The notes under the pieces were generated by a model. The model was given only the letters and a program-made list of their open reading frames with translations. It ran no database searches and was not told the DNA's origin. From the IMG/VR virus record IMGVR_UViG_2711768101_000011: a stretch of DNA of 16,377 bases. The stretch is one strand, 5' to 3'. Position 1 is the first letter of the stretch, and the number at the start of each line of letters is the position of its first letter. A program made the position numbers and the translations under genes. Positions 2,216 to 15,088 of the stretch are shown piece after piece. This stretch comes from a virus. Taxonomy: Duplodnaviria; Heunggongvirae; Uroviricota; Caudoviricetes.

Positions 2216-2418
2216 ATTTTCACTTTTTTAAATCCAACGACAGACGGCTGGCATTTAAGTATTGTGAAATATTATCAAATGTAATCATCATTGATTTACA
2301 AAAGATACATTTTGCCCCGAAAGGATTCATGTCAGAAACATCAAAAGATGATGTTCTATACTGGGAACCATGACAACACGGGCATCTAAAGTGAATATGG
2401 TTTGTAATATTGTCTACC

Positions 2419-2631
2419 TCAAAGCGCCACTACATGAACAGCGGCAGGACCTTTAGGTCCGTTCTCAATACCAAATTCAACTTCCTGATTCTCAGTTAAT
2501 GTTTTGAAATCGTTGCTCTGAATTGCTGAGAAATGGACAAACACATCTTTGCTGCCATCTTTCGGCGTGATGAAACCAAAACCTTTTTCAGGGTTAAACC
2601 ATTTCACTAAACCAGTCATTTTGTTAGACAT
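2419..2631 (-). CDS. cspI: CspA-family cold shock protein (70 aa)
   Basis: [38 protein letters not shown]... carries RNP1/RNP2-type cold-shock domain motifs; AAGG Shine-Dalgarno; long AT-rich leader typical of csp genes; cspI versus cspB assignment is from context. Confidence 0.85.
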
Positions 2632-2992
2632 AATTATTACCTTTTGAAGAAATTAGCCCTTGGGCAGAATGGTCCGAAAAAAATATCAGAGAGAAAAACC
2701 AACAAGGAAATCTCAAGAGGTACAAATAATAAAATTATAACAATGACTGCTTCAGATAAATTTGTAACAAACCAGAACACCATTAACGCATGATTAACCA
2801 CCCATAGCAAGGATTACTTTTGTAAAGAAAAACACAGCAATGAAAGAATAGCTTTATTTATTAATAAAACGTGTCATTCTGATTAAGACCTTTTATCTTA
2901 CCCTTAAGATTTCAGGAATTTTGGCTCATGGAAGAGTCCTTTTTATTTAAATTTTACATTCCGCGATGTAAATGTTCCGATTTAATATTACC

Positions 2993-4738: not shown

Positions 4739-5154
4739 CTAAGAAAATCTTGATAAATATTGGTGCGGAGGCACACCAAAATATCCTCTAAAAACACTTA
4801 CAAAATATGATGCATTGTCATACCCGCATATTCCCGCCACCTTTCCGACAGTATGGTTACTGTAGATCAATAATCTTTGCGCCATCATCATTCGTTCTTC
4901 AAGAATTAATTTACTAAACGATATTCCTTCGTCTTTTAATTTTCTTTTTAACAAACTCTCGCTCATATATAATCTTGAAGATATATCACAAAGTCTCCAT
5001 GACGCTGAGATATCCGAGTGAATAATAGCCTTAACTTTACAACCTAAGCTATTAAGACTTCCGAACAAAAAACTTTGCACTATTTTCTCTGAAGATAAGA
5101 CAGCAAGACATGCAAGTGATATTTGATTTCTAACTACATCCACGGTTTTGCTAT
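4739..5154 (-). pseudogene. AraC-family regulator (AppY/EnvY-like), C-terminal fragment separated from its N-terminus by the IS5 insertion
   Basis: Host-derived part of ORF 4739-5320 carries the AraC-type HTH region (...GICGYDNASYFVSVFRGYFGVPPHQY); the first 55 codons of that ORF are IS sequence. Confidence 0.7.
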
Positions 5155-6350
<1,196 letters not shown>

Positions 6351-6652
6351 CTATCACAATTCAAGCATGCAACCAAGTTCTTTAACAATGAAAAATCTTC
6401 ACATTCTACTATCAAGTATGACGGATAAAACCTTCTTACAGAAAAAGGTGAGAGTGTGTAGTTTTTAAAGAAATCATTAACTGTTTTCTCCTCAACATCT
6501 ACGATCATTAGATGATCTGTATTTGACGAAAAAAGATCTTTTAAATTGTATTCAATGAGGACATCATTTCCTTTTTTAAACAAAATATCTTCTTTACCAA
6601 TTCGGACACCAAACGAGTTCAACACCAAAATGATAGAACATATGTATGGCAT
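6351..6652 (-). pseudogene. AraC-family regulator (AppY/EnvY-like), N-terminal fragment
   Basis: MPYICSIILVLNSFGVRIGKEDILFKKG... resembles the AppY N-terminus; joining this fragment to 4739-5154 after removing the IS and one CTAT copy restores one continuous frame of about 240 aa (frame arithmetic done by hand). Confidence 0.65.
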
Positions 6653-7058: not shown

Positions 7059-8018
7059 TTAATTCACCATCAGTCTTAGAGCCAGTTCTTCCGGATAGGG
7101 ATCGAAGTAATTCTGTGTAAGCAAGTAATCATTAGGATACTCACCCAGATAATGCTTCAGCAGAGTCAACGGCGCAAGAAGAGGCAATGTGCCAAAGCGA
7201 TAGTTAAGTATAACCTCGCTCAACTCTTTACGCTGGCGTGTACTTAAGTAATTACTAAAATACCCCTGTATATGCATCAGCACATTCGTGTGATTTTTAC
7301 GTGATGCTGGTTTTCTGAGAATCGCCATCAGATTATCACGATACACCTCAAAGTATGATTCAAGGTCCGCCCACTCGTGTATTGCAGCCACAAATGGTCC
7401 CATATCTTTATAGCCTGCCTGGCTATGCGCCAACAACTGAAGCTTATAACGACTATGAAAAGCTAATAACTCTCTTCTTGATAATTTCTCCTTGTAAAGA
7501 TGATTGAGCTCATGCAAAGCAAAAACTCTTTCAATAAAATTCTCACGAAGCACTGGATCATGTAATCGCCCATCCTCTTCAACCGGTAGCCAGGAAAACT
7601 TTTCCATCAAAGTGCTCGTAAATAGTCCCACCCCATCTTTACGACCTCGATTACCATTTTCATCATAGACACGCACGCGCTCCATGCCACAGCTGGGAGA
7701 TTTAGCACAAACCACAAACCCCGATACATCCTTTAATTTGTCCATATAAGAACGACTAAACTCTGTCATTCTCTCTGTCACATCCTCATTCTGGTCGTGG
7801 CTGAAACACATCCGTATATTTCCTTGCTTCGAGCGCACAAGTCGTAGAGCAGGACGCGGAACTGGCAGCCCTATAGCCATTTCCGGACATACTGGTCTGA
7901 ATGTTACCCATTCCACTAATTTGTCCATTAAAAAGTCATCTCTTTTGTGACCACCATCAAAACGAACAGCAGAACCGCCCAAACAACCGCTGATCCCAAT
8001 CACAGGTTTTTTTATCAT
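7059..8018 (-). CDS. DUF523-DUF1722 fusion protein (TudS / YbgA-like putative Fe-S thiouracil desulfidase family)
   Basis: 319 aa; N-terminal Cys-containing motifs (GISGCLGG, RPVCPE, KSPSCG) consistent with DUF523; C-terminal half YbgA/DUF1722-like; strong AAGGGGGAGGAA Shine-Dalgarno before the ATG. Confidence 0.7.
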   Translation of the reverse strand: MIKKPVIGISGCLGGSAVRFDGGHKRDDFLMDKLVEWVTFRPVCPEMAIGLPVPRPALRLVRSKQGNIRMCFSHDQNEDVTERMTEFSRSYMDKLKDVSGFVVCAKSPSCGMERVRVYDENGNRGRKDGVGLFTSTLMEKFSWLPVEEDGRLHDPVLRENFIERVFALHELNHLYKEKLSRRELLAFHSRYKLQLLAHSQAGYKDMGPFVAAIHEWADLESYFEVYRDNLMAILRKPASRKNHTNVLMHIQGYFSNYLSTRQRKELSEVILNYRFGTLPLLAPLTLLKHYLGEYPNDYLLTQNYFDPYPEELALRLMVN

Positions 8019-8210
8019 TTCCTCCCCCTTGACTAATTCATTAACACATAAACTTTGTAGTGCACTGACTAAATTGCCTTTCTGGCTTCATCACTGACAA
8101 TTTTTCTGTTATTGACTATTCCTAATATAGTAGGAAAGTTCTTTAAGTGATCGGTCGTACTCATCTATCTTTCATACTTACTCTCAACTATCAAAAGTAC
8201 AGGATTTATT

Positions 8211-8735
8211 ATGAAGTTATGGCCTGTGTTGACTGGCATTGCACTCTCTTTCACTCTTATAGCATGTAAGGCCCCGACACCACCTAAAGGTGTGCAGCCG
8301 ATTACAAATTTTGACGCCAACCGCTACCTCGGAAAATGGTATGAAATAGCTCGCCTCGAGAACTGGTTCGAACGTGGTCTGGAACAGGTCAGCGCTACTT
8401 ATGAAAAACGGAACGACGGAGGGATTCGCGTACTTAACCGTGGATACGATCCAACGAAAAACAAATGGAGCGAGAGCGAAGGTAAAGCATACTTTACTGG
8501 AGATACTAAAACTGCAGCGTTGAAAGTTTCGTTTTTTGGCCCCTTCTATGGTGGCTATAATGTAATCAAGCTGGATGATGAGTATAAGTATGCTCTTGTC
8601 AGTGGTCCGAACAGAGAATACCTATGGATTCTGGCAAGGACCCAAACTATTCCAGATAATGTAAAAGCAGACTATGTGCGTACCGCTCAAAAGTTGGGAT
8701 TCAATGTCAATGAACTATTATGGGTTAAACAATAA
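8211..8735 (+). CDS. blc: Outer-membrane lipocalin, Blc homologue
   Basis: Lipoprotein signal peptide with lipobox LIAC; lipocalin motifs (NFDANRYLGKWYEIARLENWFERG, KVSFFGPFYGGYNVIKLD) closely match Blc but are clearly diverged from the chromosomal copy as I remember it. Confidence 0.8.
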   Translation: MKLWPVLTGIALSFTLIACKAPTPPKGVQPITNFDANRYLGKWYEIARLENWFERGLEQVSATYEKRNDGGIRVLNRGYDPTKNKWSESEGKAYFTGDTKTAALKVSFFGPFYGGYNVIKLDDEYKYALVSGPNREYLWILARTQTIPDNVKADYVRTAQKLGFNVNELLWVKQ

Positions 8736-8763
8736 AATCCCCACCCGAAATGATACTTATTAG

Positions 8764-8790
8764 AAAAAAACCAGCCTTTGGGGAGGCTGG
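8764..8790 (-). terminator. tR'-like rho-independent terminator downstream of Q (also at the 3' end of blc on the other strand)
   Basis: CCAGCCT-loop-AGGCTGG hairpin; on the minus strand it is followed by TTTTTTT. Confidence 0.55.
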
Positions 8791-8794
8791 CTAA

Positions 8795-8890
8795 ATCAGG
8801 AAACAAGCTGTTATATGATAATAACTACGTTGCGATTCCAACATTTAAAATGTTAGACTAATGAAAATCAGACAGCAACTTTTCCTTTAA
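8795..8890 (-). promoter_or_regulatory. Probable late promoter (PR'-like) and qut region between Q and the terminator
   Basis: Inferred from lambdoid architecture (Q gene, short leader, terminator); only weak sigma70-like hexamers seen (e.g. TTGCTG-17-TAACAT); exact promoter not resolved. Confidence 0.3.
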
Positions 8891-9268
8891 TTATTTCGAA
8901 CAATCAGCATCCATCTCCAATCGGAGATCCAACACCATCAGCATGCCCTCCACTACGCCCTCAGCTTTCTGGAGCATCCTGCCAACCCAACAATCAGATC
9001 GCCCATGCTTACGTGCAAGCGCCATAAAAGTCATGCCGCCGACATAATAGTCCACCAATAAATCATGTAAATCGCTGTTGTTTTTTTTCAGGCGAGCCAT
9101 ACATTCACAAATGATCATCGCGTCATCGTCACAGCATTGCGGACGAGATCTTACTTTTGAAGGAATTAATCCCTTAAAACCGGCGGCAATGGACGACCAG
9201 GTCACATCTTCATGATTATTAGCCGCCCATGCCCCCCAACGCTCAAGAACCATCTGAATATCACGCAT
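8891..9268 (-). CDS. Antitermination protein Q (QuuD / phage 82-21 type)
   Basis: [34 protein letters not shown]...[33 protein letters not shown] matches QuuD closely from memory; GGAG Shine-Dalgarno before ATG at 9268; the ORF-track start at 9283 is a TTG. Confidence 0.8.
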
Positions 9269-9285
9269 CAACTTACTCCACAAAA

Positions 9286-10335
9286 TTAGGCCAGCACACC
9301 AATTGCCAGCGCGCGATCGATAAATCGAAAAATCAGCTCCAGTTGGGAGCCATACTTCTCTTCAAATGCCACGGTATCCGTATGCAACTCGTCGTGATGC
9401 TTTCTGCACAAAGGCAACACAAAGAGATCATGTGCTTTGGTTCCCATTCCGCCCTGCCCGTGACCAATCAGATGATGCGGATCGTCGGCTGGCATACCGC
9501 AGCAAGCACACGGCTGTGTCTTAACCCAGCGTGTGTATTTCTCCTTAACCCAACGGTGACGTTTAGGCAGCTTCATGAAAGATTCCGGAGACTCTGGATC
9601 AACGGTGATGCTTACCACCGTCTTTTCCTGTGATGGGTTTTGTTGCTGGTGGGCGTGAGGCAACGGTGCAAGATTTTTTGTGCGCTGTTTCAATATGCTG
9701 GTGGCGGTCTGCTCTCCCGGTACGATGTCGCTTTCGCGGTACACCGCGCAGTTTTTTTCCGCTGGTAATCCCAGCGAGCGACGTAATACCGCTTCCGGTA
9801 GCGCGTCCGCCACCTGATTGCGGACCGCCCACCAGGATAATTCAGCCAGAGATAATTCACGCTCCTGCGTACCGCTTATTGCGTGACCGATGACGTCAAT
9901 CATCCATGCTGACAGGTTTTGATGAGCAAGTTGCTCGAGTGATTCGGATGTCTGGTCACGCAGCTGGTTGTCGCAGTGCCAGCACAACACCATTGCGCCG
10001 GTACCATAACGGTGAATAACGGTTTCGCTGTGATGATAATCGCCGTGTGGCCACTGGCAGGATTTAATATGGCGCAACAGCCAGTCAGACAATGCACCAG
10101 CACCACCAGCAGCACGAATTACCCGTGCGTTACTGAAAAACGGCAGCAATGTTTTGTCTTCCACCAGCGGCTGGCGAACGGCAGGAACGACCCCGGACGG
10201 CAGATTACGCATGCTTTTCGGTTCCGGCTCCACCAGTACCCGGGTATTGTGGAATACCGGCATGGATTCACGGCCCGGCTTAACGACCACCAGCCCGAGT
10301 TCCGGTACCAGAACAGGTCGAAGTAATATCCGCAC
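9286..10335 (-). CDS. ydfU: YdfU-like prophage protein (DUF968, HNH-like C-terminus)
   Basis: 349 aa; C-terminal [21 protein letters not shown]...[10 protein letters not shown] motif; GTG start with GGAGG Shine-Dalgarno; resembles Qin YdfU. Confidence 0.8.
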
Positions 10336-10336
10336 G

Positions 10337-10615
10337 TTACCTCCAGATGCGTTGCTGGAATGTACGGGACGGACGCGGTGGGCGTTCGGAGTAAGGCAAT
10401 CTGACTGAGATTATCAAGTGACGGTAGTCGAGACTAAGAGCTTTCTTAACCTCGTATCCGCGCCTGCGGTAACACTGAATTATCCATTCAGCCTGCTCTT
10501 CAGTGCATGGAGGGTGCTGGAACCATTCAGACTTGAATGCGTGAGAATACCGCTCGTGCGTGCAGGCAAGAACGGGCGAATTATCAGAATTGTAATATTT
10601 TACGTTGCGTGCCAT
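10337..10615 (-). CDS. Hypothetical Cys/His-containing phage protein (92 aa)
   Basis: ATG with GGAG Shine-Dalgarno; stop TAA one nt before the ydfU GTG start (tight coupling); no family recognised. Confidence 0.45.
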   Translation of the reverse strand: MARNVKYYNSDNSPVLACTHERYSHAFKSEWFQHPPCTEEQAEWIIQCYRRRGYEVKKALSLDYRHLIISVRLPYSERPPRPSRTFQQRIWR

Positions 10616-10681
10616 CGGTTTTCTCCGGTGGCACGGTGTTACTCAGCGGGAGTTCAGCCCCGCGCAAGATTGTAGATGAGT

Positions 10682-10933
10682 TTATTCTTCTGCAAAAGCT
10701 GAAAAGCCTGCTTTTATTCCGATCTCTTTCAGTGCCTGTAATGAAGTGACAAACTCACCTTCGCGCAAGATAAATCCGTCTGTCACTCGACCATCCACAA
10801 AATTAATTAACGCAGCCCCATTCTTTCGCAAACACATAATGCGGTAATGACTAACAAGATTTCCATTTTCAACGCACACAGCATAGAGGCCATCTTCACA
10901 AAAAATTTTACGCAGTTCTTCGATGTTCATCAT
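10682..10933 (-). CDS. rem: Rem-like small prophage protein (83 aa)
   Basis: Length and position (between hok and ydfU) match Qin rem; GGAAGGA Shine-Dalgarno; sequence identity to rem is from imperfect memory. Confidence 0.5.
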   Translation of the reverse strand: MMNIEELRKIFCEDGLYAVCVENGNLVSHYRIMCLRKNGAALINFVDGRVTDGFILREGEFVTSLQALKEIGIKAGFSAFAEE

Positions 10934-11048
10934 CAGAATCCTTCCGGATAATTAGCTCTCCCCTTTAAGGGACCATCCCTCTTATCCCTGCGCGCTACTT
11001 AAGTATTTTTGATTCTATTCCGGCACCGTCCAGAACTTCAAACGCGTT

Positions 11049-11080
11049 GAAAATAAAAACAAAAACCCGCCGAAGCGGGT
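11049..11080 (-). terminator. Rho-independent terminator at the 3' end of the hok transcript
   Basis: On the minus strand, ACCCGC-TTCG-GCGGGT hairpin followed by TTTTTGTTTTTATTTT, about 70 nt after the hok stop. Confidence 0.55.
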
Positions 11081-11149
11081 TAAGTGCGAGTGCGTTGAGG
11101 ATGCTTGCCACATCAGAGGTGGCGAGGGATTTCTCCCTCGCCGGGTCTC

Positions 11150-11305
11150 TTACTCCTCAGGTTCGTAAGCTGTGAAGACAGCGACCTCCGTCTGGTCGGT
11201 TCGGATTCGTACCTCGCAGAGGTCTTTCCTCGTTACCAGTGCCGTCACTATGACGGTTAAACAGATGACGATCAGGGCGATTAACATCGCCTTTTGCTGC
11301 TTCAT
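11150..11305 (-). CDS. hokD: Hok-family type I toxin (HokD/RelF-like, 51 aa)
   Basis: MKQQKAMLIALIVICLTVIVTALVTRKDLCEVRIRTDQTEVAVFTAYEPEE; AAGGAG Shine-Dalgarno before the internal ATG; the ORF-track ORF extends in frame upstream to 11362. Confidence 0.8.
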   Translation of the reverse strand: MKQQKAMLIALIVICLTVIVTALVTRKDLCEVRIRTDQTEVAVFTAYEPEE

Positions 11306-11480
11306 AGCCTGCTTCTCCTTGCCTTTCGGCACGTAAGAGGCTAACCTACATGTGTCTAGCATGAAATTGGCCTCAGATTAATGTTAAGCGTCTTGCAGGA
11401 CGCGTAATGTTAACTGGGGCTTTTCTCTATCTGCCGTTGATGTTCATGCCCGAGGCAGATAGCCTCAAGCACCCGCAGCC
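11306..11480 (-). promoter_or_regulatory. hok mRNA leader region with structured elements (possible antisense/sok-equivalent region)
   Basis: Perfect 9-bp inverted repeat CTATCTGCC (11427-11435) / GGCAGATAG (11454-11462); hok loci are known to be controlled through leader structure and an antisense RNA; no sok promoter was positively identified. Confidence 0.3.
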
Positions 11481-11802
11481 ATTCTACTTAACTACCGTTA
11501 CCTCTCCAATATGAAATCAATCAGAAAGGTGATCCATAAGAACAATAACAAGACAATAAATTGCCATTACAGCCACAATAGCCAGCGTGCATTTGAGAAC
11601 CAGCACATAAATCTCCTGCTCTTGACGTATACAGGCACTGATAAATATGTGTCTTCGTGCTCGTTACTTCAATACGTAAGCGTCAGTTGCGCGTAATCAA
11701 ATCAGACAACCGACTTTAAACCAGGGACAAACAGCAGGTAAAATAATCAAACGTTATTTTAAGCCATATCATGGCTGCAAGATTTCCTCTAATTTCAACA
11801 AG

Positions 11803-11839
11803 ATGAGCAGGTCATTGCTTGCACTGATGACCTGCTCAT
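11803..11839. repeat. Perfect 13-bp inverted repeat (hairpin or protein-binding palindrome)
   Basis: ATGAGCAGGTCAT - 11 nt - ATGACCTGCTCAT, seen directly; about 80 nt downstream of the QueH-like gene stop. Confidence 0.6.
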
Positions 11840-11917
11840 TAATCATGATTATTTGAAAATTAAGGTAGGCGTACTATATATAGAAACACTGCTACGCTCC
11901 GTTGGCATAATATAAAA

Positions 11918-12601
11918 TCATTCCTGGCCTTCTTTACCGTAGTGGAGTTGACCAATTTTGATTAGAGGGCGTCCCTGAGATTTGCGGTGTAGATTGGTAT
12001 CGCGCAGTGAATACACGCAGCCACAATATTCCTGCTGATAGAATTGTTCGCGCTTGCTGATTTCAATCATGCGGGAAGAGCCGCCCTGCTTTCGCCAGTT
12101 ATAATCCCAGTACACCATGCCCGGATAATACGCGACGGCTCGCCGTCCACAGTCGTTAACCTGCTGCATATTTTTCCAGCGTGAAATGCCCAGTGAGCTA
12201 CTGATCACACTGAAACCATTTTCAGCGGCATACAGCGCAGTCCGCTCAAAACGCATGTCAAAACACATGGTACAACGGATCCCTCGTTCAGGCTCCCATT
12301 CCATTCCTTTGGCTCGCTCAAACCAGTTGTCTGTGTCGTAATCAGCATCAATAAATGGCACGCCGTGTTGTTTAGCAAAGCGAATATTCTCATCCTTACG
12401 AATTAAATACTCTTTCTGAGGATGAATGTTCGGGTTGTAGAAAAAGATGGTGTAGTCGATTCCCGAGGCCTGAAGCGCCTCCATCACTTCACCGGAACAT
12501 GGAGCACAGCAAGAGTGCAGTAATAGTTTTTTTGCCCCGTTTGGGAGCTCCAATTTGGGGCGTTTGAAATCAGCAACAGTCATAAATGTGTTTATGAGGT
12601 T
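11918..12601 (-). CDS. DUF208 / QueH-like Fe-S protein (epoxyqueuosine-reductase-like)
   Basis: [13 protein letters not shown] motif near the N-terminus plus CTMC and YCGC Cys motifs, consistent with the DUF208 (QueH) family as I remember it; start uncertain (12601 or 12580), no clear Shine-Dalgarno. Confidence 0.6.
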
Positions 12602-12636
12602 CATGAAAATAGCAAAAAGTGTAGCATCAGAACGGG

Positions 12637-12870
12637 CTATCGGAAACAGATGTCTAAATCTGGTAATGTCTGCTTTTGATGCAAAGCAGACAACCACGGC
12701 AGCGCACGAAAATCAGCGATAATGTCGGGATTAATAATCGGGTGACGTCCATCACATAGCGAATGTTCCTCTTTCCTGATATCGCTAAATATCGACCATT
12801 CGTCATTCTTATCGAACCAGAGCATGCGACTGCCACAGCACATGTCGAGAATGGTAGCCGATGTACTCAC
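12637..12870 (-). CDS. Hypothetical small Cys-rich protein (77 aa)
   Basis: GTG start overlapping the upstream stop (GTGA) with GGGAGG Shine-Dalgarno inside the upstream gene; motif [14 protein letters not shown] loosely resembles a SAM-binding motif I but the protein is too short for a methyltransferase. Confidence 0.4.
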
Positions 12871-13289
12871 AGCATCACCTCCCGATAATTCCCCTGATAA
12901 AACGTCAGAACACGCTGCATAACTTCGCTCTTCCGGCACTCGCGACAGATTATGTTTAGACGACTGTCGTAGCGACGTATTTCTCCATCAGGTAATGACC
13001 AGATAAGGTCCGGATCAACCACAGCAGGTTTCTTCACCTTTGCCCTCGAGAGTTTTTTGCGGGCGTTTTGCCAGTCCTTACGCGCCTGTTCAGACGGGAA
13101 TAACCCGTAGCCGGAGTTGTATACATCGCCACTGGCTACCAGCTCTCTGGCAAGAACGCTCATCAGATATCTAGTCGCACCTGTTTTAGCTTCCAGTTGC
13201 CGTAACGTCTCACGACCGCTCTGGCGCACGAGTTCCACCACTTGCCCTTTAATTTTTTCCCGCTCTTCTTGTGTAAAAACTTTTGCCAC
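12867..13289 (-). CDS. Hypothetical phage early protein (140 aa)
   Basis: GTG start with strong AAGGGGGAG Shine-Dalgarno; Lys/Arg-rich; no family recognised. Confidence 0.5.
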   Translation of the reverse strand: MAKVFTQEEREKIKGQVVELVRQSGRETLRQLEAKTGATRYLMSVLARELVASGDVYNSGYGLFPSEQARKDWQNARKKLSRAKVKKPAVVDPDLIWSLPDGEIRRYDSRLNIICRECRKSEVMQRVLTFYQGNYREVML

Positions 13290-14295: not shown

Positions 14296-14797
14296 AATTC
14301 CATCCAGCTTTTTGTTGGTATTGCTGTCGATACGCAAGCTTGAAAGCAATTGCTTTTTCTATAAGTTCGTCAGTTTCACGATCTACAACGGCAGGATCTG
14401 CAAAAAGCAGTCCGGATTCCACCACATCGCCATATTCTTTATTTAACCCGGCGATCATGTACGTAATACTTTTTCCATCACTGATCTCACGATACAACCT
14501 GAAATCACTAATCCGGATAGCCTCCATAATTGCAGGCACTAGCGCTGTGAACTTTTCACGCTTATCCCTGGTGTCGATAGCCTTCCAGCGTTCGAATATC
14601 TTCACTCGATTAACGCTAAGCGCTCGCTGATCAACCGCGCCACCTTCATATGTGACACGCTGAACATCGATGTTCGGGCGCTCTTTCAAAGCCCAGAATG
14701 CTTCAGTGATTAATATCGTCGCCTGCTCCTGTGTCATTCCTGGTCGACATATCCAGGCATCCAGAGCCTCACGAGCCTGTTCAGGAGTGATTTTCAT
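14276..14797 (-). CDS. Hypothetical early protein (173 aa) in the cII/YdaT position
   Basis: ATG at 14797 lies 17 nt inside the 3' end of dicC; its stop lies 20 nt inside the start of the O-like gene; no confident family call. Confidence 0.45.
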   Translation of the reverse strand: MKITPEQAREALDAWICRPGMTQEQATILITEAFWALKERPNIDVQRVTYEGGAVDQRALSVNRVKIFERWKAIDTRDKREKFTALVPAIMEAIRISDFRLYREISDGKSITYMIAGLNKEYGDVVESGLLFADPAVVDRETDELIEKAIAFKLAYRQQYQQKAGWNYESSFC

Positions 14798-15008
14798 TGT
14801 TCAACCGCCCCGCCCGCTTCGTCTTACGATATTCGTCATAAACTTTGGGATCATACTGAAGCTCCCCGCCAGATGCCTCCTGTAGACGCATCGCGCGACC
14901 TTCAGGAACCAGTATCCCCCAAGCAGCAACACTTGCCAGTCTCACTCCTGCGGCATTGGCAAGCTTTGTTTTGCTGCCAAAAAAAGTAATTGCGTCAACT
15001 TTAAGCAT
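14781..15008 (-). CDS. dicC: Cro-like regulator DicC
   Basis: MLKVDAITFFGSKTKLANAAGVRLAS...EGRAMRLQEASGGELQYDPKVYDEYRKTKRAGRLNNENHS is near-identical to DicC over its C-terminal half from memory; GAGGGGG Shine-Dalgarno; divergent from dicA. Confidence 0.8.
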   Translation of the reverse strand: MLKVDAITFFGSKTKLANAAGVRLASVAAWGILVPEGRAMRLQEASGGELQYDPKVYDEYRKTKRAGRLNNENHS

Positions 15009-15020
15009 CAAAGCCCCCTC

Positions 15021-15040
15021 TTGTTAGACTTTTCTAACAT
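15021..15040. promoter_or_regulatory. Operator-like palindrome in the dicC-dicA intergenic region
   Basis: TGTTAGA-CTTT-TCTAACA perfect 7-bp inverted repeat between the divergent repressor and cro-like genes. Confidence 0.45.
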
Positions 15041-15088
15041 TATTGTGCGCGGGATACCTAAGTCAAGAAAAATTAGAATTACCTAACT

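Follow-up and report, generated by a model that had tools for sequence, protein, structure and literature searches.

Two families of iron-sulfur enzymes that act on modified tRNA bases bear on the locus described here, which lies in a 16,377-nucleotide stretch of DNA from a virus of the Caudoviricetes (IMG/VR record IMGVR_UViG_2711768101_000011); "the window" below means this whole stretch. It carries a gene of the DUF208 type (queH) and a gene for a DUF523-DUF1722 fusion (rudS). Escherichia coli makes the tRNA nucleosides epoxyqueuosine (oQ), by way of tgt and queA, and queuosine (Q) and cannot make cobalamin (vitamin B12); it is said, after Frey et al. 1988, to accumulate oQ when cobalamin is absent. 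The QueH (DUF208) family was reportedly defined by Zallot et al. in 2017. QueG of E. coli carries out the same reaction, oQ34 to Q34 in tRNA (PMC5372724), but is unrelated to QueH in sequence, needs B12 and is encoded by a core gene, whereas the queH described here is prophage-borne. The DUF523-DUF1722 fusion has been characterized as RudS (Jamontas et al., Nucleic Acids Research 2024; PMC11417400). In that work all six RudS proteins overexpressed in E. coli cut tRNA 4-thiouridine (s4U) 4.7- to 26-fold, and overexpression of RudS_vir, which is encoded by Escherichia phage 1H12, reduced E. coli tRNA s4U. Stand-alone TudS, a DUF523 protein, did not reduce tRNA s4U, and a uracil auxotroph on thiouracil was complemented poorly or not at all by RudS proteins (PMC11417400).

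The window (16.4 kb) is 100% identical to a segment of the E. coli YJ6 chromosome, where it lies inside a lambdoid prophage adjoining rspB/ynfA, the Qin site. A first-pass annotation had described the DUF523-type and DUF208-type proteins as Cys-ligated Fe-S enzymes of modified-nucleobase metabolism, encoded in one prophage by accessory genes that belong to separate modules. That description is confirmed: the proteins match the PF04463 and PF02677 hidden Markov models, both families are Cys-ligated [4Fe-4S] enzymes whose cysteine motifs are present in the window proteins, the modified tRNA bases concerned are s4U (RudS) and oQ (QueH), and the two genes, both on the minus strand, stand 3.9 kb apart, queH in the nin region and rudS in the slot between the antiterminator gene Q and the holin gene. 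The further suggestion, that their joint presence is a functional signal, found no support in their co-occurrence. We consider it probable that rudS and queH are accessory genes (morons) that a lambdoid E. coli prophage carries independently of each other, captured from other Enterobacterales chromosomes, and that their pairing is a product of modular recombination.

A RudS-type protein in the Q-to-holin slot

The protein encoded by rudS matches PF04463 (2-thiouracil desulfurase/DUF523) at residues 7-149 (E 5.8e-40) and PF08349 (DUF1722) at residues 192-309 (E 9.4e-40), in both cases over the full profile. It is 91.8% identical to RudS_vir (H3V29_gp66), with which it shares its length of 319 residues, the two-domain layout, the cluster cysteines and the catalytic Glu/Arg/Ser/Ser set; none of the 26 differences between the two falls at a functional site. 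The cluster cysteines Cys12 (GISGC), Cys44 (VCPE) and Cys110 (SPSCG) occupy the positions given for RudS_vir and for Salmonella RudS_ST (Table 1 of PMC11417400). By their offset from the cysteines, Glu46, Arg55, Ser107 and Ser109 match E51, R60, S111 and S113 of RudS_KT (Table 2 of PMC11417400), residues found to be essential by mutation (PMC11417400). The gene also occupies the same slot as in 1H12, a lambda-like phage with the order Q - blc - rudS - regulator - holin. Unlike its 1H12 counterpart, however, the window rudS sits in an integrated prophage ridden with insertion sequences (IS), with a different nin region and a regulator gene broken by IS5. The nearest non-phage relatives are 319-residue chromosomal proteins of Citrobacter, Klebsiella, Enterobacter, Serratia, Pectobacterium and Salmonella, at 70 to 76% identity.

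Because of the fusion architecture, the identity to RudS_vir, the kept residues and the common cassette, the window protein is classed here as a predicted RudS-type eraser of tRNA s4U8 and not as a free-base TudS. Stand-alone TudS (PDB 6z92) aligns in its catalytic fold and three-Cys [4Fe-4S] site (CPE and SPSC motifs), but the similarity is weak (E 8e-4) and TudS has no DUF1722 domain. Filing the protein as TudS, a single-domain DUF523 protein of ∼150 residues acting on free thiouracil or 4-thio-UMP, therefore fails on its length, on the fused DUF1722 domain and on the weak match to 6z92. The first-pass annotation, which had named the TudS family, was thus right about the domain but not about free-thiouracil desulfuration, since the DUF1722 fusion marks RudS, which acts on tRNA s4U. 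In the identical YJ6 DNA, RefSeq names the product "YbgA family protein". The YbgA model of NCBIfam matches only the C-terminal half of RudS and does so below its cutoff (E 4.7e-56; score 189, cutoff 237), and E. coli YbgA itself (b0707) is a stand-alone DUF1722 protein without a desulfidase domain and had no effect on s4U (PMC11417400). The RefSeq label hides the catalytic half of RudS. As a separate observation, in a 403-residue E. coli protein found on a single contig (P0122), 92% of this RudS is linked to a GGDEF domain (PF00990), which may reflect a chimera of gene calling or assembly, or a real fusion.

A housekeeping-like QueH in the nin region

QueH of the window (221 residues) matches PF02677 from profile position 1 to 174 of 175 (E 4.3e-65; 219.5 bits, cutoff 23.5) and aligns end to end, over 175 residues, with the solved Thermotoga maritima QueH (PDB 7lc5; E 1e-21). 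In YJ6 it carries the RefSeq name "epoxyqueuosine reductase QueH". None of the NCBIfam equivalog models for QueH matched the window protein. As the NCBIfam equivalog cutoffs were unmet, the naming of both RudS and QueH rests on Pfam, PDB and homologue identity. The metal-binding motifs CCAPC (Cys25, Cys26, Cys29), CxxC (Cys104, Cys107) and CGC (Cys187, Cys189) are all present, and CCAPC recurs in every one of 120 close homologues as well as in Staphylococcus and Listeria proteins. In contrast, T. maritima QueH has CCAPD, so that in the alignment its seventh ligand position is Asp13 where the window protein has Cys29. The assignment of residues to metals is presumed from sequence alignment. The likely start codon is the ATG at 12583, which is preferred because it is the PGAP call and gives the homologue length of 221 residues. 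The longest open reading frame, from a GTG at 12697, overlaps a methyltransferase pseudogene and is not the gene, and an upstream ATG at 12604 corresponds roughly to the right end of 12601 given in the first-pass annotation.

The protein is 80 to 87% identical to annotated QueH of Erwinia, Gibbsiella, Providencia, Proteus, Photorhabdus, Sodalis and others, and queH genes with 88 to 92% identity occur in Scandinavium and Enterobacter among ordinary chromosomal genes (SDR, LysR regulators, EAL protein). Given 80 to 92% identity to chromosomal QueH, with non-phage contexts in Scandinavium and Enterobacter, the window QueH has the look of a housekeeping-type enzyme that a phage took up; compared with the known QueH family, it is set apart by its place within a phage nin region, in a host already equipped with QueG. 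When 80 species-level queH loci were tested with the phage markers of the window, one (E. albertii) had a prophage context, and Pfam scans of two further species-level loci found ordinary chromosomal neighbors; prophage queH thus seems largely confined to Escherichia. With queG present in all 5,426 complete E. coli genomes, queH would provide a second, B12-independent enzyme for the same step, and a prophage copy would be expected to free the last step of Q synthesis from B12.

The surroundings of queH vary. A truncated DNA methyltransferase pseudogene lies directly upstream in the window, an arrangement shared with phage HannyBb, whereas in other prophages queH directly follows a DUF977 gene, which is its constant upstream neighbor in lambdoid prophages and adjoins it in prophages of O157:H7 and ST131 as well as in E. 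albertii. The methyltransferase remnant was probably left behind by the recombination through which queH entered this nin region. A second queH allele, with 90 to 95% nucleotide identity, accounts for most copies (736 genomes) and resides in other prophages with different Q-S regions, those of O157:H7 and ST131 among them. Several loci have features of their own: the ST131 queH prophage (L251, 3974-4226 and 8990-9655) has tRNA-Arg and tRNA-Ile genes in its Q-S region, and the O157:H7 queH prophage (L250, 6795-9655) has an NgoMIV-type restriction-modification pair alongside. A recurrent variant of the window prophage has a 5'-truncated queH (∼146 codons) abutting ydfU (L099, 7168-7605; L110, 3058-3495), which points to a deletion of hokD, rem and the start of queH.

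Distribution and co-occurrence of rudS and queH

Distribution was established over the 5,426 complete E. coli genomes, 50,697 deposited phage records and the loci of IMG/VR. rudS was found in 1,136 of the genomes (21%), 1,064 of which have at least 80% of the gene, and prophage-borne queH in 995 (18%). Joint presence was scored with a synthetic query that placed 10 kb of random filler between the two genes; it replaced an earlier query with the native 5.6-kb region, which was confounded by common Q, ydfU and hok sequences. Either gene was present in 1,995 genomes and both in 136, against 208 expected if they were independent, a negative association (odds ratio 0.54; Fisher P = 1e-10) in which genomes are treated as independent and phylogeny is ignored. 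Both genes stood in one prophage (within ∼6.3 kb, on one strand) in just 32 genomes, of which about 9 have a truncated queH abutting ydfU; rudS and queH are both intact in roughly 14. A further ∼120 genomes have the identical Q-ydfU-rudS backbone but lack queH.

IMG/VR gave a similar picture. rudS was present in 1 of 34 queH loci having at least 7 kb downstream, and queH in 2 of 58 rudS loci having at least 7 kb upstream, so that the two co-occur in ∼3% of the loci with either gene; the per-prophage baseline is a rough estimate. Among the deposited phage records, 12 E. coli phages carry rudS and one (HannyBb) carries queH, and none of the 50,697 carries both. These caveats notwithstanding, there is no sign that the pair is enriched, and the co-occurrence survey that the first-pass annotation had proposed speaks against its functional interpretation of the pair. 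A further example of the same prophage was found in E. coli B REL606 (stretch 1606000-1628000), where rudS is split by IS3 (8656-10876) and queH (14377-15042) is intact and has the same protein accession as the window queH; in the BL21-derived B95.deltaA, a 147-nt fragment of rudS is left.

Maintenance of the two genes

Both genes are under purifying selection. Between queH alleles, nonsynonymous divergence (dN) is 0.016 and synonymous divergence (dS) 0.27, a ratio of 0.06; for rudS compared with phage 1H12 the values are 0.041 and 0.29, a ratio of 0.14. IMG/VR yielded 80 queH copies and 79 full-length rudS copies, every one of them intact. Isolated viable phages carry the genes as well, rudS in 1H12 and the Lambda_ev series and queH in HannyBb.

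Candidate expression signals in the two modules

The consensus scan found no clear sigma-70 promoter upstream of rudS or of queH, and within the divergent region between rudS and blc no match at all, so no promoter of rudS's own was found. Because the gene lies in the slot between Q and the holin gene, would be reached by read-through of the tR'-like terminator and showed no promoter of its own in the scan, rudS is most likely a late gene, read with the late operon. The tR'-like stem downstream of Q folds at a free energy (dG) of -14.9 kcal/mol (z -3.4), and together with the pR'-like candidate it would form the usual lambdoid late-operon layout. For queH, membership of the early nin transcript seems probable from its position. 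Inspection by eye found a weak extended -10 candidate (TGcTACACT) ∼35 nt upstream of its start, and the hairpin after its stop codon, which no shuffled sequence folded as well as (0 of 200), may terminate transcription or affect RNA stability. Both are putative signals, which together would give queH a moron-like layout.

The gene between rudS and the lysis genes encodes an AraC-family regulator with a GadX/YdeO/HilD-like C-terminus, which is intact in REL606 and in phage 1H12 and is split in the window by an IS5/ISKpn26 element. On the other side of rudS, the blc product exceeds the cutoff of the NCBIfam Blc model (312.6 bits). In phage cassettes this blc-type lipocalin gene always forms a divergent pair with rudS.

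Proposed roles and alternative explanations

Under the proposed mechanism, each gene would supply a tRNA-modification activity that is absent from the E. coli core genome or is B12-dependent there. In RudS, a [4Fe-4S] cluster held by the three cysteines would use its free iron to bind the s4U8 sulfur of folded tRNA; Glu46, positioned with the help of Arg55, Ser107 and Ser109, would activate a water molecule so that s4U is converted to U, and the DUF1722 domain would grip the anticodon arm. Expression would follow prophage induction, when Q-modified polymerase would pass tR', read blc in antisense and then transcribe rudS and the lysis genes. The likely effect is a lower s4U8 content, with less crosslinking of tRNA by ultraviolet A (UVA) light and less arrest of growth and translation. 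QueH, with its [4Fe-4S] cluster plus Fe, would need no cobalamin to turn the oQ34 of tRNA Asp, Asn, His and Tyr into Q34, and would so back up the universal B12-dependent QueG in a host unable to make B12. Each gene alone plausibly alters host tRNA modification, and recombination among lambdoid phages probably brought both into one prophage without selection for the pair.

A coordinated use of the two genes is conceivable, in which s4U8 removal and Q34 completion together retune host tRNA for phage translation. Both are intact in the window prophage, both enzymes target tRNA, and tRNA-Tyr has both s4U8/9 and Q34. Overexpression of RudS lowered tRNA-Tyr(GUA) abundance about 2-fold, and in the published RudS model DUF1722 touches the anticodon region, the site of Q (PMC11417400). 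However, a functional pair sits poorly with the negative association across genomes, the scarcity of joint prophages in both E. coli and IMG/VR, the absence of the two together from isolated phages, the many genomes that have the same backbone without queH and the placement of the genes in different transcription units (early nin region and late Q-S region); its chance is very slim. Under roles outside tRNA, RudS would recycle 4-thio-UMP or thiouracil set free by tRNA breakdown, and QueH would belong to a 7-deazaguanine route of DNA modification. Stand-alone TudS is reported to desulfurate thiouracil and 4-thio-UMP (PMC10611767), 7-deazaguanine pathways serve phage DNA modification (PMC6884629), and RudS_vir had a shorter lag on 4-thiouracil than any other RudS protein tested (PMC11417400). 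Yet every tested RudS fusion cut tRNA s4U and stand-alone TudS did not (PMC11417400). The window gene, moreover, keeps its full DUF1722 tRNA-binding domain under purifying selection. As to QueH, the 46-kb prophage is annotated without DpdA/TGT, QueA or preQ0-synthesis genes, the phage enzyme is nearly identical to housekeeping QueH, and we know of no QueH substrate other than oQ in tRNA, all of which makes this alternative very improbable.

A third view holds that the genes are silent cargo, passengers in a decaying prophage that affect neither host nor phage. The insertions of IS5, IS2 and IS100 in the window prophage, the IS3-split rudS of E. coli B, the truncated queH copies and the lack of a clear sigma-70 promoter in the scan all fit this view. 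But the dN/dS ratios (0.06 for queH and 0.14 for rudS, at dS of about 0.27 to 0.29), the intactness of every one of the 159 full-length copies in IMG/VR, the carriage of each gene by plaque-forming or viable phages (rudS by 1H12 and the Lambda_ev series, queH by HannyBb) and the fixed position of each across diverse prophages render it decidedly unlikely. The reading of rudS and queH as independently captured morons, which we prefer, has points against it as well. RudS_vir was the least active RudS per protein amount and had the shortest lag on free 4-thiouracil (PMC11417400), which makes its substrate preference uncertain. In this prophage, the activity and expression of both genes are predictions. 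IS5 in the regulator and IS2 and IS100 in the early-left region mean that induction may be impaired; the prophage may be defective, in which case late transcription may never occur. A benefit from queH is conjecture, because oQ-tRNA and Q-tRNA are not known to differ in phenotype. Neither gene is indispensable, given that the E. coli B lineage has rudS disrupted by IS3 and that ∼9 genomes have a truncated queH. Finally, the co-occurrence statistics disregard phylogeny and use a per-prophage baseline that is only approximate.

Implications for strain variation and annotation

RudS, its phage copy included, and QueH as a well-defined family were already known. According to both the RudS paper (PMC11417400) and a 2026 review, E. 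coli has no RudS, but this is untrue for the 21% of complete genomes that have a prophage rudS, mostly intact. Strain differences in s4U level and in UVA growth delay may, given that frequency, stem from prophages. Literature searches on prophage or phage QueH returned nothing relevant, only chance matches to author names and general descriptions of the pathway; in the literature searched, it is apparently new that queH is a common lambdoid-prophage gene, present in 18% of E. coli genomes and always alongside queG. Strains with queH, including the E. coli B lineage (REL606), may hold Q in B12-free media where K-12 holds oQ, and would offer a simple natural experiment on the functional difference between oQ and Q. 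The two phage families are listed in PHROGs as "unknown function" (phrog_3275 and phrog_3217), and these entries, like the RefSeq "YbgA family" label, can now be annotated.

A broader proposition, which we regard as rather unlikely, is that prophages make the tRNA epitranscriptome of E. coli strain-variable and that, where both genes are present, induction joins s4U removal with full Q modification. If this were true, about a fifth of strains would gain an s4U8 eraser and about a fifth a B12-independent completion of queuosine, and induction, which is often by UV, would keep the translation of phage late genes going under UVA or stringent stress and B12 scarcity. The answer to the question of the pairing is deflationary: the pair is probably coincidental, and the interest lies in strain-variable tRNA modification and in the annotations to be corrected.

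Prophage setting and other features

In the YJ6 annotation, the window has integrase, exonuclease and dicB genes to one side of it and, to the other, genes for terminase, portal, capsid and tail, and cI/cro are present in the early region. Read along the minus strand, the early part runs cro, a ydaT-like gene, an O-like gene, DUF977 (Ren-like), the truncated methyltransferase pseudogene and queH, followed by hokD/sok, rem, an open reading frame of 92 codons, ydfU (DUF968) and Q. From Q on come blc (plus strand), the DUF523-DUF1722 gene, the AraC-family regulator split by IS5, holin, ydfR, lysozyme and Rz genes; the IS5 family element thus stands between rudS and the lysis genes, and IS2 and IS100 lie in the early-left region of the prophage. 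Coordinates of the features are collected in Table 1.

Table 1. Features of the window and the evidence for each (positions are those of the window).
Feature	Position	Strand	Evidence
cspA thermoregulator, upstream of cspI	2392-2776		Rfam match; standard Qin-type prophage feature
AraC-family regulator, halves 4739-5149 and 6353-6652, split by IS5-family element (transposase 5302-6282)	4739..6652	-	RefSeq pseudogene/IS annotation; Pfam HTH_18/HTH_AraC
rudS, TudS(DUF523)-DUF1722 fusion, 319 aa, predicted [4Fe-4S] tRNA 4-thiouridine desulfidase	7059..8018	-	Pfam and identity to RudS_vir
Divergent intergenic region rudS/blc, 192 bp, with strong Shine-Dalgarno GGGGGAGG before the rudS ATG	8019..8210	.	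Sequence read directly
blc-like gene for an outer-membrane lipocalin lipoprotein, paired with rudS in the Q-S cassette	8211..8735	+	Pfam Lipocalin_2, E 7.5e-43
tR'-like intrinsic terminator, ∼100 nt downstream of Q	8769..8792	-	9-bp GC-rich stem and U7 run
Candidate for a pR'-like late promoter, which overlaps the stop codon of Q	8890..8919	-	Consensus match at 9/12 positions
Q antiterminator	8891..9268	-	Pfam Phage_antitermQ, E 8e-51, and annotation
sok antitoxin RNA of the hokD locus	11300-11474		Rfam match; standard Qin-type prophage feature
Terminator-like hairpin just after the queH stop, 13 bp perfect, weak U tail	11800..11840	-	dG -22 kcal/mol, z -4.8
queH, predicted cobalamin-independent epoxyqueuosine reductase, 221 aa	11918..12583	-	Pfam, PDB, homologues
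Truncated DNA methyltransferase pseudogene directly upstream of queH	12685..12870	-	RefSeq "methyltransferase, incomplete, missing C-terminus"
DUF977/Ren-like gene	12867..13289	-	Pfam DUF977; phrog_142 "Ren-like"

Two other contexts for the genes were considered and set aside. One was a link to phage tRNA genes, of which the window has none and an ST131 queH prophage has some. The other was a role in a defense system; no PADLOC defense model matched either of them, nor blc, ydfU or the 92-residue open reading frame. The YdfU/DUF968 protein (9286-10335) has a weak C-terminal match to the HNHc_6 nuclease family, below the cutoff (E 3e-5), and its homologue in phage HannyBb is annotated as an HNH endonuclease.

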